A stretch of DNA of 64,000 nt from a virus (taxonomy: Duplodnaviria > Heunggongvirae > Uroviricota > Caudoviricetes): the IMG/VR virus record IMGVR_UViG_3300043438_000976, positions 36,027 to 100,026 of that record. One strand, written 5' to 3'. The first letter of the stretch is position 1. The number at the start of each line of letters is the position of its first letter. The translations under genes were made by a program, and so were the position numbers. A model generated the notes under the pieces. That model did not search any database, had not been told where the DNA came from, and saw only the letters and a list, made by a program, of their open reading frames with translations. Positions 7,116 to 62,478 of this stretch are shown here, in pieces.

Positions 7116-7116
7116 A

Positions 7117-33902: not shown

Positions 33903-33903
33903 T

Positions 33904-34612: not shown

Positions 34613-34713
34613 TGGTACGGTCGGTAGGCTTCGAACCTACAAGGGCGTCGTCTAGGACCGTGCCCGTTCCCCTCAGTGGACCTTGGGAGCTTTTCCAATT
34701 TGCTCACGACCGC
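34613..34713 (-). tRNA. Atypical 101-nt tRNA-like gene with a Leu-type body and aberrant anticodon/variable region
   Basis: Acceptor GCGGTCG/CGACCGT + A73 + CCA, D-arm AGC-AAATTGGAAAA-GCT, T-arm GTAGG-TTCGAAG-CCTAC; the central ~47 nt does not form a normal anticodon stem. Confidence 0.7.
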
Positions 34714-34715
34714 AA

Positions 34716-35510
34716 TTAATTATAACTTATTTTCTTCTCCGACGCAAGTCCTAGAAATATCAAAATTTGGATAACGTATCGACCGGGGTCAAACTGCCAC
34801 CATTCTTTTCCAATTTTCCAACTTCCGGGAGTAGTGTGATGGTTATAGTGCCAACCTTCGCCAAATGTTAAGTACGACCACCACCAAACATTATGTGACT
34901 GATCTCTATGGTCGGTTGCAACGCGAGTACCAAACATTGGGCTATGATCAATCCAGTTGCTCAACCTAGAAGCCATCGTGTTAAAAAATACAGGAATAAT
35001 GTAGAGGAACACAGCAATTATTGGATCAATTGCTACCAATACTGCTACAACCAATAAGACTATCGGCATATAGTATTCGTGCATAAATCTATGAACAGGA
35101 TCGTTGATAATATCTTTTACAGACCATTTGTTAAATTTGCCGCCGTAGTTACCAACAAAAGCACCTATTGGACCTAGTACTACTGGGCTGTGTGGATCGC
35201 CAGGCTTATCTGCAAATTTATGATGTTCTCTATGTACAAAAACCCATCCTACTGAGCTACCGGTGCAGCCTAAATTTCCAAAGAAGCTAAACAAATACTC
35301 TAAGGGTTTCCAAAGTCGATATGATTTATGAGTCAGCAATCTATGAAATGTAACTGTAATGCCTAAACATGTAATTAAAAAATATCCAAATAGAGCAAGC
35401 AACCAATTGCTCCAACTAACGGTTGTAGTTAGTGCCCACACAAACACTCCTGCAGATACGAGTTGCATTAAGATAAAAAACCATTCCCTTGGATAAAAAT
35501 ACTGCTTCAT
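34716..35510 (-). CDS. Membrane fatty-acid desaturase (Delta9/OLE1-DesC type), copy 1
   Basis: His boxes HRLLTH, HREHH, HYNHH and D.PHSP; probable start at 35510 or 35522. Confidence 0.9.
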   Translation of the reverse strand: MKQYFYPREWFFILMQLVSAGVFVWALTTTVSWSNWLLALFGYFLITCLGITVTFHRLLTHKSYRLWKPLEYLFSFFGNLGCTGSSVGWVFVHREHHKFADKPGDPHSPVVLGPIGAFVGNYGGKFNKWSVKDIINDPVHRFMHEYYMPIVLLVVAVLVAIDPIIAVFLYIIPVFFNTMASRLSNWIDHSPMFGTRVATDHRDQSHNVWWWSYLTFGEGWHYNHHTTPGSWKIGKEWWQFDPGRYVIQILIFLGLASEKKISYN

Positions 35511-35523
35511 TGGATACCCCATA

Positions 35524-35536
35524 TATAAATATTTAA
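35524..35536. promoter_or_regulatory. Back-to-back T4-like late promoter candidates
   Basis: TATAAATA (+, 35524-35531) overlaps TTAAATA (-, 35530-35536) through the palindrome TAAATATTTA, between divergent genes. Confidence 0.6.
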
Positions 35537-35547
35537 CCGTTTTTAAT

Positions 35548-36165
35548 ATGTCTGAATTTATTTTAATTGCCTTTTCGTCTTTGTCGGAGCAACAACGTCT
35601 ATACTTTTTTGATTTTTGCAAAGCTGCTAGCCTAGAATCTGATCAACCTGCAGCAACTAACATGTGGGACGATAATTGGGAAGAAGCTCCACATACCTTA
35701 CCGCATGTGTTACTAAAAACTGATCGATTTTCAAACGGCAATGGTGAATTTTATGTACTAATTAATGGAGAAACTATTGCTGCTTGCGGTGGAGTTTATC
35801 TAAGTGAATTTAACAAAGGCATCAGTTTAGCTGGAACTCGCACATGGACTGCAAAACAGTTTCGACATCGTGCGTTAATTAGAGATTACATTCTCCCCAA
35901 ACAAAAAGTATGGAGTATGAATAAAGGCTGTAAACAGGTAGCATTATGCTTTAATGATTACAATAAAAATATAAAGAACATTTTTTACAGAACTCGCCTT
36001 GGAGAACAAACAGGTCGAGTATTTCAGAGATCCCCGGAACATTTATTCTTTTCTAACATAAACGAACTACCCTTCCTTGTAAATATACAGTACACTCCGC
36101 AATGGGTGCTGTACGAAAAAATAGACGCAACCTGGGAGTTTGATTGGTCAGTGCTCAAAGCATAA
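35548..36165 (+). CDS. GNAT-fold acyltransferase-like protein
   Basis: FYVLINGETIAACGGV...RTWTAKQFRHRALI resembles GNAT motif A. Confidence 0.55.
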   Translation: MSEFILIAFSSLSEQQRLYFFDFCKAASLESDQPAATNMWDDNWEEAPHTLPHVLLKTDRFSNGNGEFYVLINGETIAACGGVYLSEFNKGISLAGTRTWTAKQFRHRALIRDYILPKQKVWSMNKGCKQVALCFNDYNKNIKNIFYRTRLGEQTGRVFQRSPEHLFFSNINELPFLVNIQYTPQWVLYEKIDATWEFDWSVLKA

Positions 36166-36602
36166 TCTTTGGTATAATATATTTCCTAGTATGGACGCTA
36201 CTGCTATACTGGATGCATCGTGCTGCCCATGTAGTACCATTCCTAAAAACCTATCATGTTGGACATCATCAGTTTATCGTTAATAATGAACCAACCTGGC
36301 ATTGGACTAATATTTTTATTTTTCAGGATAACAAAGTCAGTACTATAGATGTTTGGTTAACTGAAATTATACCAACTCTATTGTTTTGCTATATTACAGG
36401 ACAATGGTGGATTGCTGTGATATTTTATATATGGTCTGCATTTATTCAAGAAGCAATCGAACACAATCGAACCTTTGATATCTTTCCATTGAGTACTAGC
36501 GGAAAGTGGCACCTAGTTCATCATTTTAACGGACCGTATAATTATGGGATATTTCATCCCTTCTGGGATATATTATTTAGAACTTATAAGACTGTACCGT
36601 GA
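36144..36602 (+). CDS. Fatty-acid hydroxylase/sterol desaturase superfamily protein
   Basis: YWMHRAAH, HVGHH, EH, HLVHH, NYG...PFWDILFRT. Confidence 0.85.
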   Translation: MVSAQSIIFGIIYFLVWTLLLYWMHRAAHVVPFLKTYHVGHHQFIVNNEPTWHWTNIFIFQDNKVSTIDVWLTEIIPTLLFCYITGQWWIAVIFYIWSAFIQEAIEHNRTFDIFPLSTSGKWHLVHHFNGPYNYGIFHPFWDILFRTYKTVP

Positions 36603-37822
36603 AAATATTAATTCCGTCATTGAATGCAAATCTGCTGTGCTGTCTACAATCTTTAAATGATTTGTTAATAGAGTACGATGTTGTTATCGCTACTGACAAC
36701 ACTGAATTTGACTTTCTTATTAGAAAACTAAAAGGACTTATTCCTCAAAACAATATTAAAATTTATAATAGTGAATTGACCTACGATTCTACTACCCATA
36801 GTAGGTTTGAAATATTTCTTAAAGAATTGATTAAAGTTGAAGAGTACTGTTACATATTGCCTACTATGCCTGATTATATTAATCATGTAATTGCATCATT
36901 AAACTCAAAATTTAATTTGCCAGGGATAAAACTAGAACAATCAGCACTGTGCAATAAAGAAGCATATTATAAAATTTTTGAAACTATTGGAATACCGTAT
37001 CCTAAAACTTTTATAGATAACACTTCGTTAAAATTTCCTGTAGTTGTTAAACCGTCAGCAGGAACAGGTAGTATAGGTGTTAAAGTAATTTTTAATAATG
37101 AACAGTTGACGCAATTTTTTGATATTGATAAACACGCTTTACCAAAAATTGAATTCTGGAAGCAAGGCTACTTTGATTTTAATAGCAACTATATTATACA
37201 AGAATTTATAGAAGGTGAGTTAATCACAGTTTCTGGTCGAGTAGTTGGTAGTCAAATTACGTTTGATTCAATTTTTGATATAGAATCATCTCCCCCGCCG
37301 TGGTGCACAGAATTAGTGTTTCGATTTCCTTCTAAAATTTCTCGTAGTGTTATTGAAAAAATTAAAGAACAAGCAGCCCAATTTTTACAACATATTCAAT
37401 TGAATGATTCACCTTTTTTATTTGATGTGATTATTAGTGATACTGATTTTTATTTTATTGATTTTGGTATGAGGGTCACAAACAATCCCCAAAAACCATT
37501 ACATTCTTTGTGTAAAGAATACACCGGGTTATGGGTCATTTCTTTACTAAACAACCAACAGTACCAGCCAATATTTGACGGTGCTTGCATTTATCATAAT
37601 TTTAATTTTCCTGCAGGAACAATATCAAACATAGAATGCAAAAATAACACTGCTAATGAATTAGTATTACCAGATATCGGAAAACGAATATATCCGTCTA
37701 GACACGATATGCTAGCGAACGAGAAAGGTTATTTTATTATTGCAGATAAATCGATCACTGAAGTATCTAATCGTGCTAACAAATTGTTACAGTCTATCTG
37801 CATAGAATATAAAAATGATTAA
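36599..37822 (+). CDS. ATP-grasp ligase
   Basis: FPVVVKPSAGTGSIGV, IIQEFIEG, FYFIDFGMR. Confidence 0.85.
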   Translation: MKILIPSLNANLLCCLQSLNDLLIEYDVVIATDNTEFDFLIRKLKGLIPQNNIKIYNSELTYDSTTHSRFEIFLKELIKVEEYCYILPTMPDYINHVIASLNSKFNLPGIKLEQSALCNKEAYYKIFETIGIPYPKTFIDNTSLKFPVVVKPSAGTGSIGVKVIFNNEQLTQFFDIDKHALPKIEFWKQGYFDFNSNYIIQEFIEGELITVSGRVVGSQITFDSIFDIESSPPPWCTELVFRFPSKISRSVIEKIKEQAAQFLQHIQLNDSPFLFDVIISDTDFYFIDFGMRVTNNPQKPLHSLCKEYTGLWVISLLNNQQYQPIFDGACIYHNFNFPAGTISNIECKNNTANELVLPDIGKRIYPSRHDMLANEKGYFIIADKSITEVSNRANKLLQSICIEYKND

Positions 37823-38468
37823 TAGATTTTTAGATCCAGCTAATGTTGATGATGTAAAGCAACTAAACGAAATACTCGATCTTTATTTGCAAGGAGAATT
37901 TCAACGAACTAATCCTATATACGCATATAAGAATCAAGTAGGTGTTGTTACATGGATTAAAGACACGTTTAATAAAGCATCTCAAAATGATTTTATTATA
38001 ACAGGACAGTTTATCAATGGCAGATTAGAACAAATATTTGTTGCGTACAAGTTAGAAGTAGTTTGGGGCATTAAAGAAAGTTACTGGCCTTATTGGTGCG
38101 TAGGGTTAGTATATTTCAGAGAAACATCCTGGGCTACACCTGCTGATAAAATTTTATCAATAGAAGCATTATCTACTTCATTCTTTGAAGCACAAGGATA
38201 TTATACTGGGTACATGGTAATTAAAGCACCGAAGGGTTTAGTAAACATGACTGATTTTTCTAAGGCAGACGAATATATTGACAAAGTGTTTACAAAAACT
38301 ATTCCGGGGCTGACTCATAATTTTAGAGTAGAACAGATATTTAGATCTCAACAAGATTTAGATTCTTTTAAATTTAAAGGTCTTAGTTTTATTTTACCAA
38401 AGTCTATTTTGGGCCCGGTAGTTTTATTATCATTCACGCTTAAACACCAATATCGACTGTGCCGGTAA
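37815..38468 (+). CDS. GNAT-like hypothetical protein (paralog family with 41177 and 47999)
   Basis: GQFINGRL...W.V...FEAQGYYTGY pattern. Confidence 0.5.
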   Translation: MINRFLDPANVDDVKQLNEILDLYLQGEFQRTNPIYAYKNQVGVVTWIKDTFNKASQNDFIITGQFINGRLEQIFVAYKLEVVWGIKESYWPYWCVGLVYFRETSWATPADKILSIEALSTSFFEAQGYYTGYMVIKAPKGLVNMTDFSKADEYIDKVFTKTIPGLTHNFRVEQIFRSQQDLDSFKFKGLSFILPKSILGPVVLLSFTLKHQYRLCR

Positions 38469-39271
38469 ATAGCAGCATGTTTAATCCTATCCTTAAAAAC
38501 TTGAAAGAAGTGCCTAACCTTCTGCTAATATTAACACCGACTTTGCTGTTAGGTATGTGGGCCTGCTATGATATTGTTGCAAACTATGAACATATTAAAC
38601 TAATATATTTCTTGCTAGGATATTTTGTAATCAACATTATCGGAGTGACTGCCGGACTTCACAGGTATTTTAGTCATAGAAGTTTTAAAGCAAGTAAATG
38701 GAAAGAACGCCTCATGTTGTGGGCCGCAGTGATTGCAGGACAGGGTAGTCCTGTTTGGTGGGTAGCGTTACATAGAGGATATCATCACCGGTGCAGTGAT
38801 ACTGAATTAGATCATCATAGCCCTATACATGGGTTTTGGCATAGCTTTATCCTTTGGATGTACCGCATTAAACCCTCCGCAGTTAATTTTAAATATGCAA
38901 TCGATTGCCTTCGTAATCCAGATGTAGTATGGTTTAGTACTCACTATAACAAAGTTTGGGTAGTTTCTAATTTGATATTTTTAATTATCAGTTGGGATTT
39001 CTTTTTATATTTCTCCATACTGGCTGCTTTTGTTACCTTAATCACGTATAATATTACTAATAGTTTAAATCATACACCTGGCTTTGGATATACAAATTTT
39101 GATACTAAAGATAATAGTATGAATGTTTGGTGGCTCTGGCCATTTGTATTCGGGGAAACATGGCACAACAATCATCATGCCAAACCTGGAAAAAGCTACC
39201 TTGGTGTTAAATGGTGGGAAATTGACCCAGCCGGAACATTTATTAAGATGTTCCAAGATCGAAAAAAATGA
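38459..39271 (+). CDS. Membrane fatty-acid desaturase, copy 2
   Basis: HRYFSH, HRGYHH, HNNHH. Confidence 0.9.
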   Translation: MPVNSSMFNPILKNLKEVPNLLLILTPTLLLGMWACYDIVANYEHIKLIYFLLGYFVINIIGVTAGLHRYFSHRSFKASKWKERLMLWAAVIAGQGSPVWWVALHRGYHHRCSDTELDHHSPIHGFWHSFILWMYRIKPSAVNFKYAIDCLRNPDVVWFSTHYNKVWVVSNLIFLIISWDFFLYFSILAAFVTLITYNITNSLNHTPGFGYTNFDTKDNSMNVWWLWPFVFGETWHNNHHAKPGKSYLGVKWWEIDPAGTFIKMFQDRKK

Positions 39272-41169
39272 AAATCGGATTTGTACATCTACCTATCAGC
39301 AACAACCTTATACATTATCCCTTATCCTGGCTAATAGTTAAGACCACTGTTGAAACTAAATCTAAAAATAAATTTAATTTTCTAGATCCTATAATACACA
39401 ATCACGAAATAGATGACGCTTATCTAAAAAATAGTGACATCTTGATGGTTAGTCTCTATGCATGGAATAGAAATTTAACAATGAAGATTGTTGATAGGTA
39501 CAGAAATTTAAATCCTAAGGGTGTGATTATTGCTGGTGGCCCACATACATTGGAAAATGATACAGAAATATTTGAGTTTGTAGTTACTAACGAAGCAGAA
39601 ACATGCATTCATTTAATTGTTGATAAAATTAAAGGGGAACCAATTGATAGAATTCCCTGTACTAAAAGCAAATCATTATCAGAATATTTCGTAGAAAAGA
39701 TAACTGATTTTTCTGTTAGTGCATATCTATTCCAAAAAGACACAATATTAGATCTAAAAGAAAAATTCAGTAGCTTTAATATGAGCATAATTTTAGAAAC
39801 TAATAGGGGATGCCCCTATGGATGTACATTTTGTGATTGGGGATCTTCCACACTATCAAAAATTAGACAGCGGCCTTTTGATGTAGTTAAAGCTGAAATA
39901 GAATTTATTGCCAGTTTAGATCCGAACTATGTTTATCTAGCTGATGCAAATTTTGGTATCCTTCCTAGAGATGTTGAAATTGCAAAGATTATTGCAGATG
40001 TAAAATCTAAAACAAATCAGCCAAAAAATATGTATGTCAGTTATAGTAAAAATAATTTAGATAGGAATTTAGAAATTGCAGACATATTATTTTCAAGTGG
40101 TGCAACTAGTAACTATACGTTCAGTCTTCAGCATACTGACAAAGAAGTCTTAGAAATTATTGATAGAATTAATCCGCATATCGATAAACTTAGAAAACTG
40201 TCCGATAAACTTTTAGAAAAAAAGATACCTACATTTACACAGCTAATAATTGGCAACCCGGGCGATACTCCTAAAAAATGGCGTAAGTGTTTGTATGATG
40301 TGTTTGAACTAAACTTGCACGAAGAATTAAGGATGTACTACTTCTGTGTCTTGCCAGGAAGTCCAGCAGCAGATAAAAACTATATAGATCAACATGCACT
40401 ACAGTTTTCAACAGTAAACTACTTTAATCAGTCCTCGAAAGAGAAAGACCCTGATCAAATGTCTGATATTATAATCGGGTGCAAAACATTTGATTCAGAT
40501 GACTGGATTAAAATGAATATTTTTGGTAGGCTCATTCAAGCTCTACACGATTTAGGGTTAGTTAAAGTTATTGCCATTTATCTACATAATAAAAAAATTA
40601 AAAGCTATCAAAATTTTTATGATGATTTAATTGCTAAACTTGAAGAGAACTTTCCTGAGTTGTTTAAAGATTTAACTTTAGCACTCAATGAATGGATCAC
40701 TACAGATAGAACAATTTTAAATTGGAATCCAGACGGAGTTTCTGGTCTTGAGATAGAAGAAAAGTTATGTTTTCATTTTGTAAAAAATAAAGATAAATTC
40801 TATCAATCTGTGATAGAGTCACTACATCCTATATTAAATTCTAAAATTGAAGATTTAATAAAGTGGCAAAATAATAAAGTTATCGATATGGAGTATGATC
40901 CTACTTCGGGTAAATTATGTTCTTCCCTGTTTGATTGGGACAATTGGTTTGACAATAGAAATTGGTCAGCATCAATTTCATTAAGAACTAACAAATATAG
41001 ATATGTTGATAAACAAGTAGGAGTTAGTGACTGGGATAAACAAGAGATAATCTTTTACAGAATACCAATGGAAAAGAGACCACGAATGTTTGCATATCAA
41101 ATGTTCACCGGAGTCTCTCAAAGAAAAAACAGACTCTTTCTTAAAGAGATAGAAATTGTAAAAAATTAA
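39268..41169 (+). CDS. Cobalamin-binding radical SAM enzyme
   Basis: N-terminal VSLYAWN...IIAGGPH; ETNRGCPYGCTFC (CX3CX2C); DANFG. Confidence 0.9.
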   Translation: MKIGFVHLPISNNLIHYPLSWLIVKTTVETKSKNKFNFLDPIIHNHEIDDAYLKNSDILMVSLYAWNRNLTMKIVDRYRNLNPKGVIIAGGPHTLENDTEIFEFVVTNEAETCIHLIVDKIKGEPIDRIPCTKSKSLSEYFVEKITDFSVSAYLFQKDTILDLKEKFSSFNMSIILETNRGCPYGCTFCDWGSSTLSKIRQRPFDVVKAEIEFIASLDPNYVYLADANFGILPRDVEIAKIIADVKSKTNQPKNMYVSYSKNNLDRNLEIADILFSSGATSNYTFSLQHTDKEVLEIIDRINPHIDKLRKLSDKLLEKKIPTFTQLIIGNPGDTPKKWRKCLYDVFELNLHEELRMYYFCVLPGSPAADKNYIDQHALQFSTVNYFNQSSKEKDPDQMSDIIIGCKTFDSDDWIKMNIFGRLIQALHDLGLVKVIAIYLHNKKIKSYQNFYDDLIAKLEENFPELFKDLTLALNEWITTDRTILNWNPDGVSGLEIEEKLCFHFVKNKDKFYQSVIESLHPILNSKIEDLIKWQNNKVIDMEYDPTSGKLCSSLFDWDNWFDNRNWSASISLRTNKYRYVDKQVGVSDWDKQEIIFYRIPMEKRPRMFAYQMFTGVSQRKNRLFLKEIEIVKN

Positions 41170-41176
41170 ATAAGAC

Positions 41177-41794
41177 ATGCAAGAGACGAGAATTTTAACT
41201 GTAGATGACGCTAACGCATTGTCTAATATCTATCATCAAATTGAGCCCTGGCGTTCAGAACATCAGCCAAAAGAAAAATTTGACTTTTGGAAAAATTTAG
41301 AAAATGTCGAAAAAACATTGCTCGATAAGTCAGGAACTTATATTGGAACTTTTCAAGATGGGCAGTTAATAGCATCATTACGTATGACTTGGTGGAAAAG
41401 TATGCCGCATTGGAGTCTTGGTAATATTGTAACTAATATTAGAACACTAACAATTAATCTAGAAAAAAATGGTGTTGCAGCGGCCATGAAGCTAGCACTA
41501 GACTTAGCAGAGTCAAAAGGATATTTTAGGTTCTACACCTCAATTAGTGAACGACAAATGAGCCAAGAAATTTTTGATCTATGGCCTAAGTATGTTCCTG
41601 AACTAAACGATTATCTATACGTTGTTGAATTTGAGCATGATGGAGTCGAATCAACTGGGTTTCCTGTGTATGACATGTTACTCGAAAGTGCGAGACTTCC
41701 TCCTCCCTATAATTCAAAATACTACATTAGAAGTGCGACTGCAAAAAACAGTCGACGAAAACTTAAGATTCTCAAGGACCTAAATGAACATTAA
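41177..41794 (+). CDS. GNAT-like hypothetical protein
   Basis: YIGTFQDGQLIASLRM...W.LG...AESKGYFRFY. Confidence 0.55.
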   Translation: MQETRILTVDDANALSNIYHQIEPWRSEHQPKEKFDFWKNLENVEKTLLDKSGTYIGTFQDGQLIASLRMTWWKSMPHWSLGNIVTNIRTLTINLEKNGVAAAMKLALDLAESKGYFRFYTSISERQMSQEIFDLWPKYVPELNDYLYVVEFEHDGVESTGFPVYDMLLESARLPPPYNSKYYIRSATAKNSRRKLKILKDLNEH

Positions 41795-42023
41795 AGAAGA
41801 ATTGCTAGAAATTATTTCTTATCAAACGGCGGTTACAAAACATACTATTACTAGTAGTCAATCTTGGAAAGAGGCAGGAATAGACAGCTTAGACACCTTA
41901 GAGGTTATGCTAACTGTTGCAGAAAAATTTGGTGTAACTATCGAAGAAGAGGATGAAGAAAAGCTGGTAAATTTTAACGAGCTGTTATTATATCTTGAAG
42001 GCAAAATCTCGGATAAATATTGA
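41784..42023 (+). CDS. acpP: Acyl carrier protein
   Basis: 79 aa, acidic; GIDSLDTLEV...EKFGVTI phosphopantetheine motif. Confidence 0.9.
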   Translation: MNIKEELLEIISYQTAVTKHTITSSQSWKEAGIDSLDTLEVMLTVAEKFGVTIEEEDEEKLVNFNELLLYLEGKISDKY

Positions 42024-42040
42024 ATTATAGGAAGCCAGAT

Positions 42041-42400
42041 ATGCACCACATAGTTACTAAATTTTTTCACATCTCCGATCCCGATTTTAACCCGGATAGC
42101 GGTGAAAATTATGTAATCTTATTCTACAATTACATGATTCAGACGGGCGTTTTTTCTGCACCCGTTGTAGCAGTAGAGAATTTTTTACCAAAATTAAGAC
42201 AAGTCCGTCAACAGTTTATCAATGATAATAAACTGTTAAACCATCTTGCAGAATTTACTGATGAGAGAAGTTTAACCTGGATTGGAATTTTTACAGATGA
42301 GGCTGCATATGACGAATATAGGGCAACATTGTTAACAGAATTTGGAACAGATTTTCACATCGAATTCGAGTCGGACAAGGCATCACTTACATTAGCTTAA
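42041..42400 (+). CDS. Hypothetical protein
   Basis: ATG at 42041 with an AGGAAG SD (the ORF track uses TTG 42020); lies in the operon between ACP and the desaturase. Confidence 0.6.
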   Translation: MHHIVTKFFHISDPDFNPDSGENYVILFYNYMIQTGVFSAPVVAVENFLPKLRQVRQQFINDNKLLNHLAEFTDERSLTWIGIFTDEAAYDEYRATLLTEFGTDFHIEFESDKASLTLA

Positions 42401-42401
42401 C

Positions 42402-43893: not shown

Positions 43894-43894
43894 G

Positions 43895-44773: not shown

Positions 44774-44774
44774 A

Positions 44775-46211: not shown

Positions 46212-46212
46212 G

Positions 46213-47094: not shown

Positions 47095-48007
47095 ATTTAA
47101 CTTAGATGTTAATGGCATAGGCCAGGATAATTGGATCAAATATCATTTTAACGGAAATCGAACTAGAGTAAATCCCAAAGATAATTTTGAAGTAACATTT
47201 ACAAAGAAAGCAACATCTGCTCCTACATTTAATACTGCTTGTAAATTAGTAGCAGAAGAGCTTTATGAACTTAATAGACACCAAACTATATTTGTTCCAA
47301 TGAGTGGTGGGTGTGATAGCGAAACAGTTGCAGATACCTTTTTGCAGTTAAAGATTCCGTTCACTCCTATAATACACGAAGTTTGGTCATTGGGACTTCA
47401 ACTAACTTATGCAGATTCTTGGTGGGCGTATCGTTGGTGCAAAAAACATAATATCACTCCGATTGTAAAAAATACAACTACGTTGGAAATGTTTGCAGAT
47501 ATTAAGCCATTAATTGATAAAATTAAAGGAAGAAAATTATACCCTGCACAAAATATTATATTGTCAGAGTTTGCAGTGCAACACGACGGTGTTGTGATAA
47601 ACGGTCAAGCATTTCCTGAATATTATCCCGACTACACATTAGAGTATTTGATAGATATTGTTAATGACTCTGGATTTTTTAATGAAGACGGTACAAAAAA
47701 ATCAGGTTGGTTATTACACGAAGACGACTTCTATGTAGATATGTATAATCCTGGTTATCATACCTATAACTTTTTAAGCTGGAATCCTGAGATTGTTCTT
47801 GCTTACATTAAAGAAAGAGATATGTCGTTAAACAGCGAAGAAAACAAATTTAAGATAATGAAAAAAGATCCTCGTCCTAAGATCGGTGCTCCCGATGCAG
47901 TGTGGCATTTGTTAAAAGAATATCAACACAAGCTGAAGAAACAGTACGGGACCAGTGAGTTGTCGTTTATTGGAACTCACGAAGAAATGTTTAATATTTT
48001 AACGTGA
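47075..48007 (+). CDS. PP-loop (adenine nucleotide alpha hydrolase) family protein
   Basis: FVPMSGGCDSE motif. Confidence 0.7.
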   Translation: MTSKWNKFNLDVNGIGQDNWIKYHFNGNRTRVNPKDNFEVTFTKKATSAPTFNTACKLVAEELYELNRHQTIFVPMSGGCDSETVADTFLQLKIPFTPIIHEVWSLGLQLTYADSWWAYRWCKKHNITPIVKNTTTLEMFADIKPLIDKIKGRKLYPAQNIILSEFAVQHDGVVINGQAFPEYYPDYTLEYLIDIVNDSGFFNEDGTKKSGWLLHEDDFYVDMYNPGYHTYNFLSWNPEIVLAYIKERDMSLNSEENKFKIMKKDPRPKIGAPDAVWHLLKEYQHKLKKQYGTSELSFIGTHEEMFNILT

Positions 48008-48571
48008 TCTAAATTCTAATTTAAGAACTCGCTGTTTAATTAGTGTTGCATCGGGTTTTAATTCTTCCCCCATTAACTTCCAATACAGTGATTGATCGGG
48101 TTTAGTATTTGGGGGGACAACATCTAATGTTGATAAGTGATACCTTCCTACCTGCATAAAAGAATTCTTTTGCCACTGTTTGTCGTATACTCTTGATATC
48201 TTTTCAGATATTGCATAGTAGTATGTATAACAATTTTTAGACTCTGCAATTGCAAATGCTTCTTTAATCATCATACTCAAATCTGGATGGTTAAAACTAA
48301 AATACGATTGTTGCCGGCTAGAAAAAAAACAAGGGACTACCCAAAATTTTCCTCGTAAGCTACTGTCATATATTCCCATCGATATCCAACTCACTAAATC
48401 ATTATTTTCAAAATAGCCAATTGCAAAATTTGTATCATTTGATTCGAAGAACTTCTGATATCCTTCTATAAATGATTGGTCACTAATTGCCACTGTTCCG
48501 CCAATTTTTGGTCGTAACTGTTTGATTTTTAAACAGGCATCAAAGTGTTCGGGGCCTAATATCTTTATCAT
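47999..48571 (-). CDS. GNAT-like hypothetical protein (paralog of 41177)
   Basis: AIGYFENNDLVSWISM...AESKNCYTYY; probable start MIKILG at 48571. Confidence 0.55.
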   Translation of the reverse strand: MIKILGPEHFDACLKIKQLRPKIGGTVAISDQSFIEGYQKFFESNDTNFAIGYFENNDLVSWISMGIYDSSLRGKFWVVPCFFSSRQQSYFSFNHPDLSMMIKEAFAIAESKNCYTYYYAISEKISRVYDKQWQKNSFMQVGRYHLSTLDVVPPNTKPDQSLYWKLMGEELKPDATLIKQRVLKLEFRSR

Positions 48572-48604
48572 ATCAACGTACTTATCCTTCAAATAAATAC
48601 CAGT

Positions 48605-49363
48605 ATGAAAATCTTCTCCGCATCTGCAGATACTATTACCAAGGTACAAATTACTACAGGAATTTTATCAATTATTGGACTGTTTTATTTTGATTTTACA
48701 ATGACTAATATGTTCTTAATATTAGCATCGTTTTATGTATACGGAGTTTTTGGTATTGGTATTACACTGCACAGATACTATACTCACAAATCATTTGAAT
48801 TTATTCATCCTGCAATTAAATGGCTCTTTACATTGTTTGCAATACTGGCTGGTAGAGCAAGTGTACTAGGTTGGGTATATGTTCATCGATTGCATCATGC
48901 ATATTCGGACACTGATAAAGATCCCCATGGACCTAAAACAATAGGATTTAAACCATTCGGCTTTAAACATATTGAATCTAACAGCGGTAAAGTTAACGTG
49001 TTCATGATAAAAGATTTAATGAATAAAGAGCAAGTGTTCATCAACGAATACTACTATGCAATAATTATTGTATGGTTATCCATTCTAGCAATGATAGATA
49101 TCAATCTCGTTTACTTTACATGGATAGTTCCCGTCTTTCTAGTACAGATGAGTCAGAATATCTTTAATTATGTTGGTCATAGTTACGGATATAGGAACTA
49201 CAAAACAACTGACACTAGCACTAATAACGCATTACTATGGCCTTTAATTATGGGAGATGCGTGGCATAATAATCATCACGGTAATCCTAAATCAGCTACT
49301 ACTCACGAAAAGTGGTGGGAGATTGATCCTGCAGGTATTGTGATTAAAGCTATTTCTAAATGA
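48605..49363 (+). CDS. Membrane fatty-acid desaturase, copy 4
   Basis: HRYYTH, HRLHH, D.PHGP, HNNHH; ATAAATA at 48593-48599 upstream. Confidence 0.9.
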   Translation: MKIFSASADTITKVQITTGILSIIGLFYFDFTMTNMFLILASFYVYGVFGIGITLHRYYTHKSFEFIHPAIKWLFTLFAILAGRASVLGWVYVHRLHHAYSDTDKDPHGPKTIGFKPFGFKHIESNSGKVNVFMIKDLMNKEQVFINEYYYAIIIVWLSILAMIDINLVYFTWIVPVFLVQMSQNIFNYVGHSYGYRNYKTTDTSTNNALLWPLIMGDAWHNNHHGNPKSATTHEKWWEIDPAGIVIKAISK

Positions 49364-50814
49364 AGGCAATTATATTTGGGGATAATTTTATCCCCGCAGG
49401 TATACACAGAGTAGGAATTGCTAGGACAACTGGGGCTCATAGAGTTGCTACGTTACTGAGAAAAAAAGGTATTGACACAGAAGTAGTTGATTTCTTTTTA
49501 AGTTTTAGTCTAGATGAAATATTTCAAATACTAAGCCTGTATGATAACGATTTAAAATTTATAGGGTTTAGTGCCAGCATCACTTATTATCCTAAAGGCA
49601 AAATAGATTCAGTAGTTAAATTTATAAGAAAAAATTTACCGTGGGCAAAAATTATAGTCGGCGGAACTAATGTCTATGCAAAGGACGCACCCGGGGCCGA
49701 CTTATATACAGAAGGATTTGTTGAAGAAGCAATAGACGATATCGTTAGATTTGTAGAAGATCAAGTACATTCTATGCAAATTGAATCGTTTAATGGAAAG
49801 CCTACTGTAAAAGTCACGCATACATATCCATTGGTAAACAATCAAAAATTAGAGACTATATATCAAGCTAGCGATTTTATTTCCCCTAATGAGACATTAG
49901 TATTAGAATACTCTAGAGGATGTATTTTTAAATGTAAGTTTTGTGATTTTCCGTTAATAGGCAAAAATAAAAACGATTATCTTAGAGAAGATGAAGATAT
50001 ATTAAAAGAACTTATCAGAAATTACAATCAATGGGGAACAACACACTACATTATCTCAGATGATACATTTAACGATAATGAATTAAAAGTCGATAGCTTA
50101 TTAAGAATATCCAAACAACTTCCTTTTAAATTGTCTATCATGGGGTTCATTAGAGCTGATTTAATGCATGCCAGAGGCACTACTGTTGATAAACTAGTAG
50201 AAGCAGGATTTAAAGCCATGCATTTTGGAATAGAAACATTCCATCCCGAAGCTAGTAAACTAATAGGAAAAGCATTTAGCGGATCTAAAATGAAAGAATA
50301 TTTAACTAGTGTTAAACAAAAACATCCTAACTTGTTCTTACATTCTAGTTTTATTGTTGGGCTACCATACGAGGATGCACAATGTTTAGAAGATACATTT
50401 AATTGGTGTGATACTTCAATGGTATTAGATGCATGGTCAACATATCCATTGAATATCCCTGCAAAAAGCGGAATGGTACTAACTTCATATTTTGCAGATA
50501 ACTGGAGATTGTACGGATACAAAAAAATTGAAGAAGATGATATACGTATTATTTGGGAAAATAAACATTTTAATACATATACTTCTGAAAAACTATCAGC
50601 AGAGCTCAACGCAAAAAGATACAATAACAAAAAGATAAATCCGTGGTCAGCATTTTCAATTACTGTACACGGATACGATATAGATCAATTACTAAAAGAG
50701 AATAAAAATAATTTAGATGTTCCTGATCTTATAAACAAAGCCGCTAAATTTGTAGACGTTTACAAATATAAAAAATTAGAATTTTTTAAAAATAAATTTA
50801 ATCTGCAAAAATAA
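49360..50814 (+). CDS. Cobalamin-binding radical SAM enzyme
   Basis: GAHRVA...EVVDF...IIVGG; EYSRGCIFKCKFC; DDTFND; FGIET. Confidence 0.88.
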   Translation: MKAIIFGDNFIPAGIHRVGIARTTGAHRVATLLRKKGIDTEVVDFFLSFSLDEIFQILSLYDNDLKFIGFSASITYYPKGKIDSVVKFIRKNLPWAKIIVGGTNVYAKDAPGADLYTEGFVEEAIDDIVRFVEDQVHSMQIESFNGKPTVKVTHTYPLVNNQKLETIYQASDFISPNETLVLEYSRGCIFKCKFCDFPLIGKNKNDYLREDEDILKELIRNYNQWGTTHYIISDDTFNDNELKVDSLLRISKQLPFKLSIMGFIRADLMHARGTTVDKLVEAGFKAMHFGIETFHPEASKLIGKAFSGSKMKEYLTSVKQKHPNLFLHSSFIVGLPYEDAQCLEDTFNWCDTSMVLDAWSTYPLNIPAKSGMVLTSYFADNWRLYGYKKIEEDDIRIIWENKHFNTYTSEKLSAELNAKRYNNKKINPWSAFSITVHGYDIDQLLKENKNNLDVPDLINKAAKFVDVYKYKKLEFFKNKFNLQK

Positions 50815-51403
50815 CGTATTCTTGATACCGTTTTGCATTCTCGGTTATGATGCTTTGATATGCATCTTCTTTTGGTTTTCCAAAATATGTGATTAAAATT
50901 TTACTGTGTCCAAAATACCAATCAGTTCCGTGTTTTCTTTTGTGGTCCCAATAAGCCCAAGTGTTTGTATCCGAAGGTAATAGTTGATATTCTCTTTTAG
51001 TATCTTTTAGGTAATAAAAATTAGGACGCACATTATTATCATATACTAGCGACCTTACACTTAAACTTTCTGAATCATAATCGGTGTGCGGAAGTACTGC
51101 TCCCATGCTAGAAACAAATCTTACTACTTCTATATCAATAGGAAACTTGTCTAGATTATCAAAGATAGATGGAAATAGTTCTGGACAGTTTAAATTTTTA
51201 GATTTGTATTTTGTAGTTTCTTCTGCGTCAACTCCGGGCTTTACCCAGATATCAAAACCTCTCCATGGTGCAGCATTAGTATTGTGATTAGTTTGTATTT
51301 TTTGTACAGGCTTAGATTCTTTATACCATAGTGACCACCAATTATCCCAATTAATTGGTTCAATCCTGGGCATGTGTAACGGAGTTGAAAGTATATTCTG
51401 CAT
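50798..51403 (-). CDS. Cupin/Fe(II)-2OG oxygenase-like protein
   Basis: VLPHTD...WDH..KHG. Confidence 0.55.
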   Translation of the reverse strand: MQNILSTPLHMPRIEPINWDNWWSLWYKESKPVQKIQTNHNTNAAPWRGFDIWVKPGVDAEETTKYKSKNLNCPELFPSIFDNLDKFPIDIEVVRFVSSMGAVLPHTDYDSESLSVRSLVYDNNVRPNFYYLKDTKREYQLLPSDTNTWAYWDHKRKHGTDWYFGHSKILITYFGKPKEDAYQSIITENAKRYQEYVIFAD

Positions 51404-52035
51404 TAATTATAGATAATGTAATCTTTGTACTTTTCAATACTTCTAGACATAAGTTCTAAATGTTTATCAGTATCTAATCTTCCTGCAATGAACATGGTAA
51501 TTTTTCTATATTCTGCAGGTGCTATGAAAGATCCATGATAGCCTACATGGTTGTTTAATACAAACCAATCAGTGTCATTGGGTAGTACAGGAAACACAGG
51601 TGATAATAAGTTTCTAGGTCTTTGATCGTATTGTACAATATCGGGATTAGATGACGTTGGCAGCACATAGAATGTTTCTAACATGTCACGCATTACTAAA
51701 TTTTTATAAGCAGTGGGTCCTAATTCTCCATCAGCTAACGATTTAGCTATTGGATCTTGGTGCGGCTTATTATTGACTATCTGCTCTCTAAAATCAAAAT
51801 GTCCATTATTTTCATAATCTAACAGCGGCAATGCTCTTAATTTTTCATCAAGGTCGGGAAACAACTTTAGCAGATCCGGGTCTATTGGCTTGTTCATTGG
51901 TTTAAAATTTACCCAAGCCCAGTCTTGATGAGGTAGCTTTCTTGCGTCAAAGTATTCCAAAACTTTCTGTCTATCTAAATTTAACTTAGGCAAATCAATA
52001 GGCATTAGTATAATATCTTTTAAATTCATCTCCAT
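51403..52035 (-). CDS. Cupin/Fe(II)-2OG oxygenase-like protein
   Basis: KPHQD...FVLNN..GYHG...RK. Confidence 0.55.
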   Translation of the reverse strand: MEMNLKDIILMPIDLPKLNLDRQKVLEYFDARKLPHQDWAWVNFKPMNKPIDPDLLKLFPDLDEKLRALPLLDYENNGHFDFREQIVNNKPHQDPIAKSLADGELGPTAYKNLVMRDMLETFYVLPTSSNPDIVQYDQRPRNLLSPVFPVLPNDTDWFVLNNHVGYHGSFIAPAEYRKITMFIAGRLDTDKHLELMSRSIEKYKDYIIYN

Positions 52036-53453
52036 CCTCGATTTATTATTGTTTTTAATTTTTCTTTATATGTAGAAATAAAAGGATCTTTCCTTGCCAT
52101 TACTAACATAGCCCAATCTTTCCAACCGTATTGTTTAATTTCTTCCTTAGTATACCCTAATGAATAAAGCGAAGAAGTATAAAATCCAGTCATAGGCCAA
52201 GTCGGTTGCAAGATATCATTAAACTCGTGTGATAGTGCTTCGTGCAGTTCGTGATTATTTTTGGGGTCTCTAGTATCTTCCCACCCCATGACTTCTGCAT
52301 CTCCAGATTGATCGTCAGAATTTTTCCAATATGCTTTCTTTTTTAGAAAAAACTTTTCGGGATTATTTGCAAACTCAGATTTTGGCAATATGACAAGTCC
52401 TCGAAAATATCCTCTTATAAAATTATTCTCTTTAATCCAATCTACTGTTGATCTAAGATGGGGTATATCTTCTCCAGGTAGTCCTGAAATAAAACTTGCT
52501 TCGATACCTACTTGATTTTTCCAGAGATCATTGTGTAATTTAGGTAAGTAATCTTTTCCGTGTTTAGCATTCCATCCCTTTCCTACCTTTCGAGCAGCTT
52601 CTGGATGAAAACTCTCCATGCCAAAGTATACCTGGTCTACTCCGCTTTCCAACATTAGATTGTGATTTTCATGGCTCCATATCAAATCTGCACGTACAAA
52701 GCCAGACCATCTAATTTTATAATCAAGTTGTTTGTTTATATTAGCAATCTCAGCTATCTTATCTTGATCTTCGTTGCAGGTATCGTCTAAGAAAACATAG
52801 TTAGTAGTTCCAAATACATCTCTGTTTCGTAGCATTTCATTTAATAAGTATTCAGGTTTCCTAATATATGACCCTTTAGATTTACCTAGATTTGGATACG
52901 TACAGAAACTGCACTTAAAAATACACCCTCGACCTAATTCTATAGGAACTGCTTCATCGGGCATAATACAATCATCTTCGTGAAATGTATGATCGTTTTG
53001 AGTTATATCAAAAACAGAATTTGGCAATGCTACTCCCATACTCTGTTCTTGACACCATTTTAGAAATTGGTCTTCACCTTCCCCGACAAATGCACGATCT
53101 AACATCTTGTAATTGTTAGAGTACGGCCCACCTCCTACAATTGGAAGATTTGGAAATTTCTTTTTAAAATACTGTATTGCTATCATAATAGCCCCGGGCG
53201 GATAAGAACTATCTGCGTTCCAAAATACTGTAGTGAGTGCAATACAAACAGTGTCTTTAGTTATTAAAGGCTCTGTAAATTCAATAATTTCTTTAGCAGT
53301 AAAATGTTGTAAGAAATCTATAACCTGACATTGAAATCGATTCTTCCGCATCCAATGAGCTAACGCATATGCGGCCATTGGACGCTGCATAGTTGGCAGT
53401 TTTTCGTAAGTAAAATTCGGCCAGACACCGCTCCAAAATATTATATTTCTCAT
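52026..53453 (-). CDS. Cobalamin-binding radical SAM enzyme
   Basis: AAYALA...QVIDF...VGGGP; ELGRGCIFKCSFC; DDTCNE; FGMES. Confidence 0.88.
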   Translation of the reverse strand: MRNIIFWSGVWPNFTYEKLPTMQRPMAAYALAHWMRKNRFQCQVIDFLQHFTAKEIIEFTEPLITKDTVCIALTTVFWNADSSYPPGAIMIAIQYFKKKFPNLPIVGGGPYSNNYKMLDRAFVGEGEDQFLKWCQEQSMGVALPNSVFDITQNDHTFHEDDCIMPDEAVPIELGRGCIFKCSFCTYPNLGKSKGSYIRKPEYLLNEMLRNRDVFGTTNYVFLDDTCNEDQDKIAEIANINKQLDYKIRWSGFVRADLIWSHENHNLMLESGVDQVYFGMESFHPEAARKVGKGWNAKHGKDYLPKLHNDLWKNQVGIEASFISGLPGEDIPHLRSTVDWIKENNFIRGYFRGLVILPKSEFANNPEKFFLKKKAYWKNSDDQSGDAEVMGWEDTRDPKNNHELHEALSHEFNDILQPTWPMTGFYTSSLYSLGYTKEEIKQYGWKDWAMLVMARKDPFISTYKEKLKTIINRGWR

Positions 53454-53504
53454 ATAACGTATTTAAACAGTTTGGTAACCTATGTTAACTTTTCTATAAG
53501 CTAG

Positions 53505-54428
53505 TTAATCTGGTCGCTGAAAGTATTTCAAAGATACTTTAGAACTTTTTAATTCTTTAATAAATTCAAAGTAAGGAATAAGCACAGCAGTCTTTCTATA
53601 CAAATTTCCAACAGTTAGTTTTAATTCAGGATTAGATGGTTCGTTTTTCATAAAAGGAACATTTTCCCATCCGCCAAACTTTGGGAAGTATAATAATTCG
53701 TCTTTCCAATACTTTCCATAAATTATTGGTTTAATATAATAGTCCCATCTATCTACACTATCTAAGTGAAAGTTTTCCTTGCACAGCCCATTTCCGTCAA
53801 AATATCTATGAGTATGCATTGCCGATTGATAAACATCATCATTTAAAATACTATAAAGAAATTCTGATGGATCTCCGTAAGGTATATACTTTCCTTTTCT
53901 TTTTAATAACTCCATTGATCGCATTCTCGCTACCTCGGGACTGTGATATCCTTGATAAAAATAAAACTTATTGTCCGGAGTAATATGTACAAATGGATCA
54001 TGAATCATTTGAATGACATCGGCGTCGTCAGGTAAAAGTCTAGTAAAAATACTCTGCATTACTTGCACAGGATGGATACATTGATCCTGTGCAATTTTCA
54101 TTACTTGTTCCTCGTACTGTATCGGATCTAAATCAATAATATCGATGCGTACACCGTACTTCTTCTTAACTAATTGCAATTGTTCGTATTCTATATCATT
54201 ATACCCCGGCATATAATAAAATACACAGTCGAGCGGAATGCCTTGAGTAAAGAAACTGTGTAATACACTCTGACTATCAACACCCGAACTCATTCCTAAA
54301 ATCAACTTGTGATGATTTTCTGCAAGTTTTCGAGCCCTTCTATCTGACTCTTCTCGCATGTTTCCTGGCACCCTAGTTAATGCTGGGAATTCTACATAAA
54401 ATTGATTGTTTTCGAAGCCGTAGTTCAT
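53505..54428 (-). CDS. PP-loop family protein (paralog of 47075)
   Basis: ILGMSSGVDSQ motif. Confidence 0.65.
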   Translation of the reverse strand: MNYGFENNQFYVEFPALTRVPGNMREESDRRARKLAENHHKLILGMSSGVDSQSVLHSFFTQGIPLDCVFYYMPGYNDIEYEQLQLVKKKYGVRIDIIDLDPIQYEEQVMKIAQDQCIHPVQVMQSIFTRLLPDDADVIQMIHDPFVHITPDNKFYFYQGYHSPEVARMRSMELLKRKGKYIPYGDPSEFLYSILNDDVYQSAMHTHRYFDGNGLCKENFHLDSVDRWDYYIKPIIYGKYWKDELLYFPKFGGWENVPFMKNEPSNPELKLTVGNLYRKTAVLIPYFEFIKELKSSKVSLKYFQRPD

Positions 54429-54443
54429 GATGATATTTAAGTC

Positions 54444-54470
54444 AAAAAAATACCCGCCGAAGCGGGTATT
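54444..54470 (-). terminator. Rho-independent terminator after the vWA/TROVE-like gene
   Basis: AATACCCGC-TTCG-GCGGGTA followed by a T7 tract on the minus strand. Confidence 0.9.
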
Positions 54471-61942: not shown

Positions 61943-61970
61943 GATGTTTCCTTAAGTGTAGTAAGTACAT

Positions 61971-61999
61971 ATTATACAGTCAAAAGAAAGCCCTGTCAA
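61971..61999 (-). promoter_or_regulatory. Sigma70-type promoter
   Basis: Perfect TTGACA-17-TATAAT. Confidence 0.9.
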
Positions 62000-62011
62000 G
62001 CAGGGCAGTAA

Positions 62012-62476: not shown

Positions 62477-62478
62477 TT

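Follow-up and report, generated by a model that had tools for sequence, protein, structure and literature searches.

What might a phage make with membrane desaturases, an acyl carrier protein (ACP) and radical SAM enzymes encoded in one block? The question is raised by positions 34716-54428 (hereafter the island) of a 64,000-nt stretch of phage DNA (the window), which corresponds to positions 94917-158916, minus strand, of one linear 228,849-bp IMG/VR virus record, ~65% complete by CheckV; record size and completeness together indicate a jumbo phage of roughly 350 kb. The island is most likely a mosaic of acyl-tailoring and acyl-transfer modules assembled around the phage's own ACP, not a proven single pathway, because its B12 radical SAM, Rieske/PP-loop, cupin and ATP-grasp modules come and go between relatives. 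Its conserved core is a GNAT-fold protein, the ACP, an ABM-like protein, a desaturase, an AspH-like oxygenase and a radical SAM enzyme, with the other genes as interchangeable additions that would vary what is made. The reading favoured here, to which a probability of about 0.5 is given, is that fatty-acyl chains bound to the ACP are desaturated, oxygenated and alkylated, and then passed by the GNAT-fold proteins to amine acceptors.

An earlier sequence-only reading of the window, made without database searches, had described 23 tightly coupled genes in a mixed-strand, AT-rich block, and this description held. All 23 open reading frames (ORFs) were found with neighbours overlapping by 1-22 nt or spaced by 1-7 nt, the sole exception being one gap of 51 nt, and with larger overlaps of the ORFs as called, up to 74 nt, at strand switches. 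The mixture of strands is borne out by the ORF layout, and the GC content of the island is 0.335 against 0.402 for the remaining record; the eight 2-kb bins of the whole record with GC below 0.35 all lie inside it. The genes, in window coordinates, are as follows.

34716-35621, minus strand: desaturase 1, a membrane desaturase of the SCD/DesC type (PF00487, E 8e-14; HRLLTH, HREHH, GEGWHYNHH).
35548-36165, plus strand: GNAT-fold protein GNATb (Atlas feature score 0.97; TM-score 0.61-0.65 to GNAT clusters).
36144-36602, plus strand: small di-iron membrane protein of the fatty-acid hydroxylase/sterol desaturase type, 152 aa (PF04116, E 2.5e-14).
36599-37822, plus strand: ATP-grasp ligase (ATP-grasp_4, PF13535, E 1e-13).
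37815-38468, plus strand: GNAT-fold protein, translationally coupled to desaturase 2 (Atlas 0.95; TM-score 0.55-0.61).
38459-39271, plus strand: desaturase 2, SCD/DesC type (PF00487, E 1.4e-17).
39268-41169, plus strand: class-B (cobalamin) radical SAM enzyme of the KedN5-like C-methyltransferase type, 633 aa (PF04055 and PF02310).
41177-41794, plus strand: GNAT-fold protein GNATa, at the head of the conserved core (Atlas 0.96; TM-score 0.66-0.70).
41784-42023, plus strand: ACP, with Ser35 in GIDSLD (PF00550, E 7e-7, above cut-off).
42020-42400, plus strand: small protein of dimeric ferredoxin-like (ABM/SnoaB-like) fold (AlphaFold 2 model, pLDDT 92.7).
42402-43142, plus strand: desaturase 3, SCD/DesC type, core gene (PF00487, E 4e-15).
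43135-43893, plus strand: Fe(II)/2-oxoglutarate (2OG)-type oxygenase of the AspH/LpxO superfamily, core gene (Asp_Arg_Hydrox, PF05118, E 3e-10).
43895-44773, plus strand: radical SAM enzyme, 292 aa, Tes/GDGT-MAS- and MoaA-like, lacking SPASM, core gene (PF04055, E 5e-16).
44775-46211, plus strand: class-B radical SAM paralogue, 478 aa (PF04055, E 5e-20).
46213-47094, plus strand: Rieske non-haem iron oxygenase, alpha-subunit type (PF00355 and PF00848; CPH...CPYH).
47075-48007, plus strand: PP-loop ATP pyrophosphatase-fold enzyme (SGGCDS motif; model pLDDT 77).
47999-48649, minus strand: GNAT-fold protein, a GNATa paralogue paired with desaturase 4 (assigned by its link to 41177).
48605-49363, plus strand: desaturase 4, SCD/DesC type (PF00487, E 1e-15).
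49360-50814, plus strand: class-B radical SAM paralogue, 484 aa (PF04055 and PF02310, the latter at E 4.5e-5).
50798-51403, minus strand: cupin-type HxD...H oxygenase (triad invariant in alignment; hhalign to the AspH family).
51403-52035, minus strand: cupin-type HxD...H oxygenase, paralogue of 50798-51403 (hhalign to the AspH family).
52026-53453, minus strand: class-B radical SAM paralogue, 475 aa (PF04055, E 2.5e-11).
53505-54428, minus strand: second PP-loop enzyme (SSGVDS; superfamily shared with 47075 by jackhmmer and alignment).

The ORF at 34716-35621 opens on a TTG that gives a 74-nt overlap with the next gene, so an internal ATG (Met34 or Met38, near 35510-35522) is the likelier start of desaturase 1. 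Nine of the ORFs gave no Pfam match even at E 10 and were assigned by fold, motif or profile comparison.

The case for a shared acyl chemistry is carried by related viral loci. Viral counts were taken from the best 80 viral loci for the 292-aa radical SAM enzyme, scored with iterated profiles, within a wider comparison of ~165 related loci. This enzyme has 1207 homologues at E up to 1e-10, and at least 360 viral contigs encode one. Among the 80 loci, an AspH-like gene is present in 67, a desaturase in 25, an ACP in 20, PP-loop in 10 and Rieske in 5; GNATb, the GNAT-fold protein that most often accompanies the radical SAM enzyme, occurs in 31, and GNATa in 14. The 20 loci with an ACP have a desaturase in 16 cases, an AspH-like gene in 15 and GNATa in 14. 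The core is ordered in L023, a 349,075-bp metagenome contig on which GNATa, ACP, the ABM-like gene, desaturase, AspH-like gene and radical SAM gene are followed directly by a phosphopantetheinyl transferase (PPTase) gene. The same L023 stretch holds orthologues of three more GNAT-like genes, of three more desaturases (E 2e-103 for desaturase 2) and of both cupins (79% identity for 51403), and the GNAT-desaturase pairings are kept there, including that of 37815 with desaturase 2. The PPTase gene stands directly after the operon in L022 as well as in L023, and L105 has the same six core genes with the ABM-like gene before the ACP instead of after it, as in L023. In another relative, L001, four desaturases and an AspH-like gene stand with a KedN5-like B12 radical SAM gene (52% identity) beside a TROVE gene (66% identity), and this adjacency places its island at the same genomic position. 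The Rieske and PP-loop genes are adjacent in L109, L111, L115 and L116, as they are in the island, while the presence of the B12 radical SAM, Rieske/PP-loop and cupin genes varies from relative to relative. The synteny comparison that the sequence-only reading had proposed thus found the genes linked in related phages, not shuffled as singletons.

Some viral neighbours are of a different composition. In another phage lineage (L005/L133, IMGVR_UViG_3300022935_001705), a row of radical SAM and AspH genes without ACP or desaturase comprises a further radical SAM gene, two AspH-like genes, a KedN5-like B12 radical SAM gene, a radical SAM gene of the 292-aa type, GNATb and a sulfotransferase gene. 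Positions 6382-7227 (minus strand) of L023 encode a 281-aa class I/II aminotransferase-like protein (E 4e-5), of a superfamily that includes the alpha-oxoamine synthases; none is encoded in the window. In some viral loci (L144 and the like), the gene downstream of the radical SAM gene encodes a TauD dioxygenase. Searches against cultured phages gave no or weak matches, both for the island by megablast and for the 633-aa and 292-aa radical SAM proteins by tblastn; the desaturase had hits, of 31-32% identity, in Pelagibacter phage Mosig and Acinetobacter phage MD-2021a alone. The desaturase gene of phage Mosig adjoins an aminotransferase gene.

The closest cellular homologues of the 292-aa radical SAM enzyme (46-55% identity) belong almost all to Bdellovibrionota, in which a trio of desaturase, AspH-like and radical SAM genes lies amid ordinary chromosomal genes; some members have larger clusters that add B12 radical SAM, PP-loop and GNAT genes. 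One such chromosomal cluster beside ordinary cellular genes (L104, Bdellovibrionales, GCA_001769935.1, 7161-20404) encodes three AspH-like proteins, a radical SAM and a B12 radical SAM enzyme, a short-chain dehydrogenase, an HTTM (vitamin-K-carboxylase-like membrane) protein, a GNAT and a PP-loop-like protein. In a maximum-likelihood tree, most desaturase-linked radical SAM sequences fall in one 32-row clade (SH-aLRT 91) made up of 17 viral sequences, 14 from Bdellovibrionota and the window gene. The ACP-linked sequences in the tree data are viral except for one distant Rhodanobacteraceae locus with an ACP-like ORF. More distant homologues in Alphaproteobacteria and Acidobacteriota (L084, L096-like loci) are flanked by genes for a PF14518 haem-oxygenase-like di-iron protein, a GNAT and an MBOAT protein. 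Radical SAM, iron oxygenase and acyltransferase genes recur together across phyla, and the pairing of radical SAM enzyme and iron oxygenase is older and wider than its link to lipid genes.

Further genes for handling an acyl chain are present elsewhere in the record. An AcpS-type PPTase of 101 aa (PF01648, above cut-off) is encoded at record positions 33771-34076, and a FabF-type ketosynthase (KAS II) of 408 aa at record positions 61595-62821, outside the window (PF00109 and PF02801; E 1.7e-56 to FabF structures over residues 3-402). The sequence-only reading had proposed an acyl moiety built on the phage's own ACP by the whole block; the acyl-on-ACP logic gained support from the PPTase, the ketosynthase and the ordered core of the relatives, and the idea that all 23 genes serve one product did not. 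The PPTase gene is preceded, in record positions C1:32369-34076 (L015), by genes for a GT2 glycosyltransferase and a 149-aa porin- or outer-membrane-protein-like beta-barrel protein, a neighbourhood that hints at an outer-membrane link. In record positions C1:8801-11286 (L018), a fifth desaturase, also of the SCD type, lies between a staphylococcal-nuclease-like gene and a gene for a small alpha/beta-hydrolase (lipase/esterase-like).

The gene-family counts of the sequence-only reading were largely upheld. Four desaturases, one fatty-acid hydroxylase, one ACP, one ATP-grasp protein and one Rieske protein were returned by Pfam; its three Fe(II)/2OG-type oxygenases are one PF05118 AspH-like protein and two cupins tied to the AspH family by hhalign; its two PP-loop proteins were recovered by motif and fold, and its four GNAT-like proteins by Atlas or by a homology link. 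The four desaturases match FA_desaturase (PF00487) above cut-off at E 1e-13 to 1e-17, and all have His boxes of the SCD/DesC kind (HR(x)3H, HRxHH, GE/DxxHxNHH); desaturase 3 (42402) aligns with mouse SCD1 (4YMK) across the His boxes at E 2.5e-13. Against the NCBIfam DesA-family model they score 66-119 bits (cut-off 400), which gives no equivalog call. A carotenoid reading (CrtW-like ketolases and a CrtZ-like hydroxylase with the Rieske protein) was ruled out by the SCD-type His boxes and the SCD1 alignment. The ACP, the only one found in the record, scores 29.9 bits against PF00550 (cut-off 20.8) and matches AcpP-type NCBIfam models at E 1e-10 with a best score of 41 bits against a cut-off of 71; it misses the AcpP equivalog score and is a diverged, dedicated carrier, not an AcpP copy. 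Its DSLD is invariant in 13 of 13 phage ACP homologues.

Among the oxygenases, the AspH-like protein (43135) has an invariant HxD...H; with 20 bits against the LpxO model (cut-off 500) and no hydrophobic N-terminus visible in its sequence, it is assigned at the superfamily level only (PF05118), not to LpxO/OlsC. The cupins at 50798 and 51403 have an invariant HxD...H and align with the AspH-like family by hhalign (probability 90.7%, E 1.2e-6); their profile found nothing significant among PDB sequences. The Rieske protein (46213) matches SxtT/SxtDIOX at E 8e-4, and the ATP-grasp protein (36599) has weak PDB matches to Ddl and to the L-amino-acid ligase 3VOT.

All five radical SAM proteins match the Radical_SAM Pfam family and carry CxxxCxxC. 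The sequence-only reading had called four of them cobalamin-binding; the class-B NCBIfam models that were matched include those of methyltransferases of ribosomally synthesised and post-translationally modified peptides (RiPPs) and the MCR glutamine methylase, and the B12-binding domain itself was detected in only two, 39268 and 49360 (E 3e-6 and 4.5e-5; 27.5 and 23.7 bits, below the cut-off of 32.1). The other two are full-length paralogues (29-36% identity; 52026-53453 is 36% identical to 44775-46211) that match the class-B models from about residue 20, and from this paralogy and these matches they too would bind cobalamin. The 633-aa protein (39268) matches NF033712 at E 2e-45, below cut-off, and 44775 matches PhpK- and lipid-B12-type models, also below their cut-offs. 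The 292-aa protein lacks the SPASM cysteines; among PDB sequences its profile best matches GDGT-MAS (7TOL, E 3e-24), with MoaA close behind (E 1e-21), and against the Tes model it scores 74 bits (cut-off 450) over model positions 90-274 of 486 only.

For the GNAT-fold proteins 35548, 37815 and 41177, Atlas language-model features score 0.95-0.97 and predicted structures give TM-scores of 0.6-0.7 (0.55-0.61 for 37815). The fourth, 47999, is linked to 41177 by a 193-aa L023 protein that matches both (E 5e-65 and 3e-10) and by jackhmmer searches of the two that converge. A GNATa profile found nothing relevant among PDB sequences. The PP-loop proteins 47075 and 53505 share a SGGxDS motif that is invariant in 16 of 16 aligned sequences, and neither had a significant match among PDB sequences. 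Foldseek matched the model of 47075 to NAD synthetase, TrmU, TtuA, TilS, NcsA and beta-lactam/carbapenam synthetase (E ~1e-5, probability 1.0), with TM-scores of just 0.3-0.46 owing to extra domains; 53505 has a weak match to the QueC-like phrog_1550. For the ABM-like protein (42020), 1.84 billion representative proteins yielded only 14 relatives, and the structural matches to its model (Foldseek E 1e-3, VIA-align Z 5-7.2) are filled by ABM/Dabb proteins. Its match to a 3916-aa protein was set aside as an Ig-repeat or compositional artefact.

These observations of gene content and conservation are compatible with the following chemistry, which we infer. The AcpS-type PPTase encoded outside the island would convert the ACP to its holo form at Ser35, and the type II fatty-acid synthase of the host, together with the phage FabF-type ketosynthase, would build or lengthen an acyl chain on it. 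The four diverged SCD/DesC-type di-iron membrane desaturases may then act on the chain, either ACP-bound or after transfer, and the AspH-like and cupin oxygenases, the small fatty-acid hydroxylase and the Rieske enzyme may oxygenate it. The four cobalamin-type radical SAM enzymes and the Tes/MoaA-like one could alkylate or cross-link its unactivated carbons. Finally, the four GNAT-fold proteins, each paired with a desaturase, would hand the acyl group to amine acceptors, with further ATP-dependent amide bonds in the head group perhaps formed by the ATP-grasp and PP-loop enzymes. The scheme is most inferential where it concerns methylation, the nature of the amine acceptor and the target finally reached. 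Precedents exist for its separate steps: the membrane desaturase JamB is ACP-dependent and works with JamC; OlsB, FeeM, LuxI and HlyC are GNAT-fold N-acyltransferases that use acyl-ACP; and BtrJ is an ATP-grasp enzyme that acts on the ACP BtrI. In line with a lipid substrate, the best solved relative of the core radical SAM enzyme is GDGT-MAS, which couples lipid tails by forming C-C bonds between unactivated carbons.

Possible expression signals bear on the target. Two further features are needed here.

35524-35531, plus strand: TATAAATA, a box resembling T4-type late promoters, 17 nt upstream of the plus-strand block's first gene.
54449-54470, minus strand: intrinsic terminator of the neighbouring TROVE-like gene (9-pair stem followed by a T-run).

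The box TATAAATA occurs once in the 64 kb (7.9 copies expected), at the head of the plus-strand block. The shorter ATAAATA is likewise rarer than chance in the window (8 copies against 27.9 expected), and three of its eight copies lie in the island at 35525, 42013 and 48593, just upstream of genes 35548, 42020 and 48605. ATAAATA copies mostly stand shortly upstream of gene starts, including that of a 2161-aa tail-fibre gene (14148, 14200). By motif argument only, the pattern fits T4-type late promoters, and it suggests that the island may be expressed together with virion genes; from these boxes, the likeliest target is the infected cell's envelope or a component of the virion. The strong terminator of the TROVE gene forms the right-hand edge of the island. 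A sigma-70 promoter scan gave fewer sites (69) than shuffled sequences (93.7) and was uninformative.

Several results weigh against an ACP-bound lipid pathway. Most of the 80 viral loci have the radical SAM/AspH-like pair without ACP or desaturase, and since the pair occurs so there and in distant bacteria, it may natively act on something other than a lipid. Among solved structures, the AspH-like protein is closest to Cpz10 (7V4F, E 2e-4), which acts on an aminoacyl-nucleoside. All NCBIfam matches of island proteins fall far below the curated cut-offs. The four GNAT-like proteins are assigned from predicted models at the level of fold only, and none had a Pfam match up to E 10 to the acyl-ACP-dependent families (OlsB, FeeM, LuxI and HlyC types). 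No AMP-binding ligase or other ACP-loading enzyme was found in the 229 kb of the record, which is ~65% of the genome. The ATP-grasp protein and the 152-aa hydroxylase had no counterpart in the ~165 related loci and are unique to this phage; no relative of the ATP-grasp protein was found in viral contigs. Finally, oxygen-labile radical SAM enzymes would here stand beside oxygen-requiring enzymes in a probably oxygenic host.

Much the same evidence can be taken to mean that the island is a hypervariable 'parking lot' of separate auxiliary modules with no common product, in which the desaturases tune host membrane glycerolipids and the others (radical SAM/AspH/GNATb, Rieske/PP-loop, cupin/B12 radical SAM and the ATP-grasp unit) act on different, mostly non-lipid, substrates of host or phage. 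That module content differs among close relatives, that AspH-like genes far outnumber desaturases and ACPs among the viral loci (67 of 80 against 25 and 20), that distant bacteria pair the radical SAM gene with genes for haem-oxygenase-like di-iron, TauD, GNAT and MBOAT proteins, and that the ATP-grasp and small hydroxylase genes are this phage's own would all be expected under this explanation. Single desaturases are, moreover, known auxiliary genes of cyanophages (PMC5776448), and the genes for glycosyltransferase, epimerase, 2OG oxygenase and methyltransferase enzymes in this region are of a kind usual in the variable regions of cyanomyoviruses. What such an assortment leaves without account is the place of the ACP, inside the core operon beside a GNAT gene and near a desaturase in many diverged phages, with a PPTase gene closing the operon in one relative; each desaturase paralogue also retains its own GNAT partner across relatives, translational coupling crosses module borders, and one distinct base composition extends over the whole block. 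The explanation is judged rather unlikely.

Maturation of a protein or peptide, RiPP-like or as modification of a virion protein, is improbable. Here residues would be hydroxylated by the AspH-like enzymes and C-methylated by the cobalamin radical SAM enzymes; side-chain amides or esters would come from the ATP-grasp and PP-loop enzymes, and the ACP would supply a desaturated lipid for attachment by a GNAT. Protein hydroxylation is the classical activity of AspH enzymes, the RiPP methyltransferase and MCR glutamine methylase models are among the class-B matches, and both late-promoter-like boxes and tail-fibre genes are present in the window. The island, however, has no room for a precursor gene, its single intergenic gap being 51 nt; the 292-aa radical SAM enzyme has neither a SPASM nor a RiPP-recognition domain; and four or five membrane desaturases and the FabF protein are left unexplained beyond the supply of lipid. 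Hypermodification of a nucleoside, tRNA or DNA base, with the PP-loop enzymes adenylating a base or carboxylate as TilS, TtuA and QueC do and the radical SAM, GNAT and oxygenase proteins decorating it, is very improbable: the fold matches to TilS, TtuA, TrmU and NcsA, the weak QueC-like PHROG match and the nucleoside substrate of Cpz10 are offset by NAD synthetase and beta-lactam synthetase scoring equally (so that the fold is not RNA-specific), by the absence of any visible Rossmann-fold tRNA-binding or THUMP/PUA domain, and by an ACP, PPTase, FabF and membrane desaturases that it does not explain.

The setting of the island is that of a large lake-water phage, probably of cyanobacteria. It is flanked by tail-fibre genes, a nucleotide-sugar epimerase gene, a glycosyltransferase gene and the TROVE/Ro-like gene, and the glycosyltransferase encoded in the window shares 72-77% identity with its counterparts in Synechococcus phages S-CAM7 and ACG-2014f. 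Outside the window, a single plus-strand run (C1:59496-66386; L185 5497-12386) consists of genes for a cytidylyltransferase-like protein, a PfkB-type kinase, Hsp20, ClpS, the FabF-type ketosynthase, haem oxygenase and two ferredoxin-dependent bilin reductases, a cyanophage-style auxiliary gene set with the ketosynthase in its middle. The cyanophage-like glycosyltransferase, haem oxygenase, bilin reductases, Hsp20 and ClpS together indicate a host that is probably a picocyanobacterium. Neither psbA nor a 2Fe-2S ferredoxin gene was found in the 229 kb of the record, which at ~65% completeness is uninformative on both.

Contigs of three lake-water runs that were not flagged as a possible source cover the island with zero differences, and the island is therefore not an assembly artefact. 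For the core stretch 41177-44773 (3.6 kb), at least half of the sampled words are present in at least 19 lake-water metagenome runs. Joints at 90-95% likeness in metagenome contigs were taken as cross-mapping of paralogues or related strains. A 237-nt contig of a lake metatranscriptome matches the ABM-like gene exactly (42142-42378), which is too little to call expression; the remaining island bins were uncovered in that run, from which neither transcription nor silence follows. The sequence-only reading had also noted a 'tRNA mimic' at 34613-34713; ARAGORN gave no tRNA or tmRNA in 34000-56600, and the element is not a standard tRNA by that program.

If the ACP-centred reading is extended to the cellular relatives, a broader proposal can be made, which we regard as possible and put forward tentatively: many uncultivated large aquatic phages and Bdellovibrionota would share an undescribed pathway with a core of SCD-like desaturase, AspH-like oxygenase and Tes/MoaA-like radical SAM enzyme, to which the phages would add ACP, GNAT and PPTase. 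A new class of oxidised, branched or cross-linked N-acyl lipid would be made during infection and incorporated into the infected cell's envelope or the virion, perhaps sealing, marking or arming it. Phages would then synthesise specialised lipids of their own, beyond adjusting those of the host. Phages with single lipid desaturases and jumbo phages with occasional ACP genes are known; to our knowledge, a multi-step acyl-tailoring pathway has been shown in no phage. Here one phage supplies the carrier, its activating enzyme, a ketosynthase, five desaturases, eight oxygenase-type enzymes, five radical SAM enzymes and four proteins of acyltransferase fold, and many uncultivated phages, as well as predatory bacteria, retain the core of the set. 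A lipid product would add a new type of membrane or surface component made by a virus, and the enzymes a new source of chemistry on unactivated carbons; if the product is not a lipid, the widespread radical SAM/AspH pair still marks uncharacterised chemistry. The core operon is just ~4 kb and thus directly testable.

The sequence-only reading did not recognise the combination as a described pathway, and full-text literature searches likewise returned no publication describing it. By analogy, its logic resembles that of JamABC, OlsB/OlsC/OlsE and BtrI/BtrJ/BtrH, with family-level membership reached in none. The terminal-alkyne modules JamA/JamB/JamC (TtuABC) of cyanobacterial natural products also use a dedicated ACP and a membrane His-box desaturase acting on the bound acyl chain; unlike them, the island has no downstream polyketide synthase or nonribosomal peptide synthetase, no acyl-ACP ligase of the JamA type turned up in the 229 kb, and GNAT-fold, AspH-like and radical SAM proteins are added. 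In the OlsB/OlsC/OlsE system, a GNAT-fold enzyme moves an acyl group from ACP to the amine of an amino acid, and enzymes of the AspH/LpxO and fatty-acid hydroxylase families then hydroxylate the product; the island GNATs, however, have no OlsB-type Acetyltransf_5 match, there is no OlsA, and the desaturases, radical SAM, PP-loop and Rieske enzymes have no Ols counterpart. The butirosin enzymes BtrI/BtrJ/BtrH share a stand-alone ACP, an ATP-grasp enzyme acting on it, hydroxylation on the carrier and acyl transfer to an amine, but their chain is a short amino-acyl group and not a fatty acid, and the island ATP-grasp gene is not conserved with the ACP in relatives. Likeness to GDGT-MAS/Tes (7TOL), the best solved relative of the core radical SAM enzyme, extends over the radical SAM core, whereas the phage protein is 292 aa long against 486-526 aa, lacks the extra cluster-binding domains and matches MoaA nearly as well.

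Two phage systems come closest in setting. Freshwater (lake) jumbophages infecting Flavobacterium carry ACP 'host-interface islands' for which a cell-surface role has been suggested (PMC13573597); like them, this is a lake jumbo phage with its own ACP gene in a multi-gene island, although their hosts are Flavobacterium and desaturases or radical SAM enzymes are not mentioned in the text of that report. T4-like phages of picocyanobacteria carry Delta9 lipid desaturases (Roitman et al. 2017, PMC5776448) whose presumed substrates are the membrane lipids of the host, and the desaturases of the present phage, which itself bears cyanophage marks, are likewise SCD/DesC-type His-box membrane enzymes. 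Unlike the lone desaturases of those cyanophages, the four paralogues of the island (five in the genome) are coupled to GNAT genes and stand amid an ACP, radical SAM enzymes and oxygenases.

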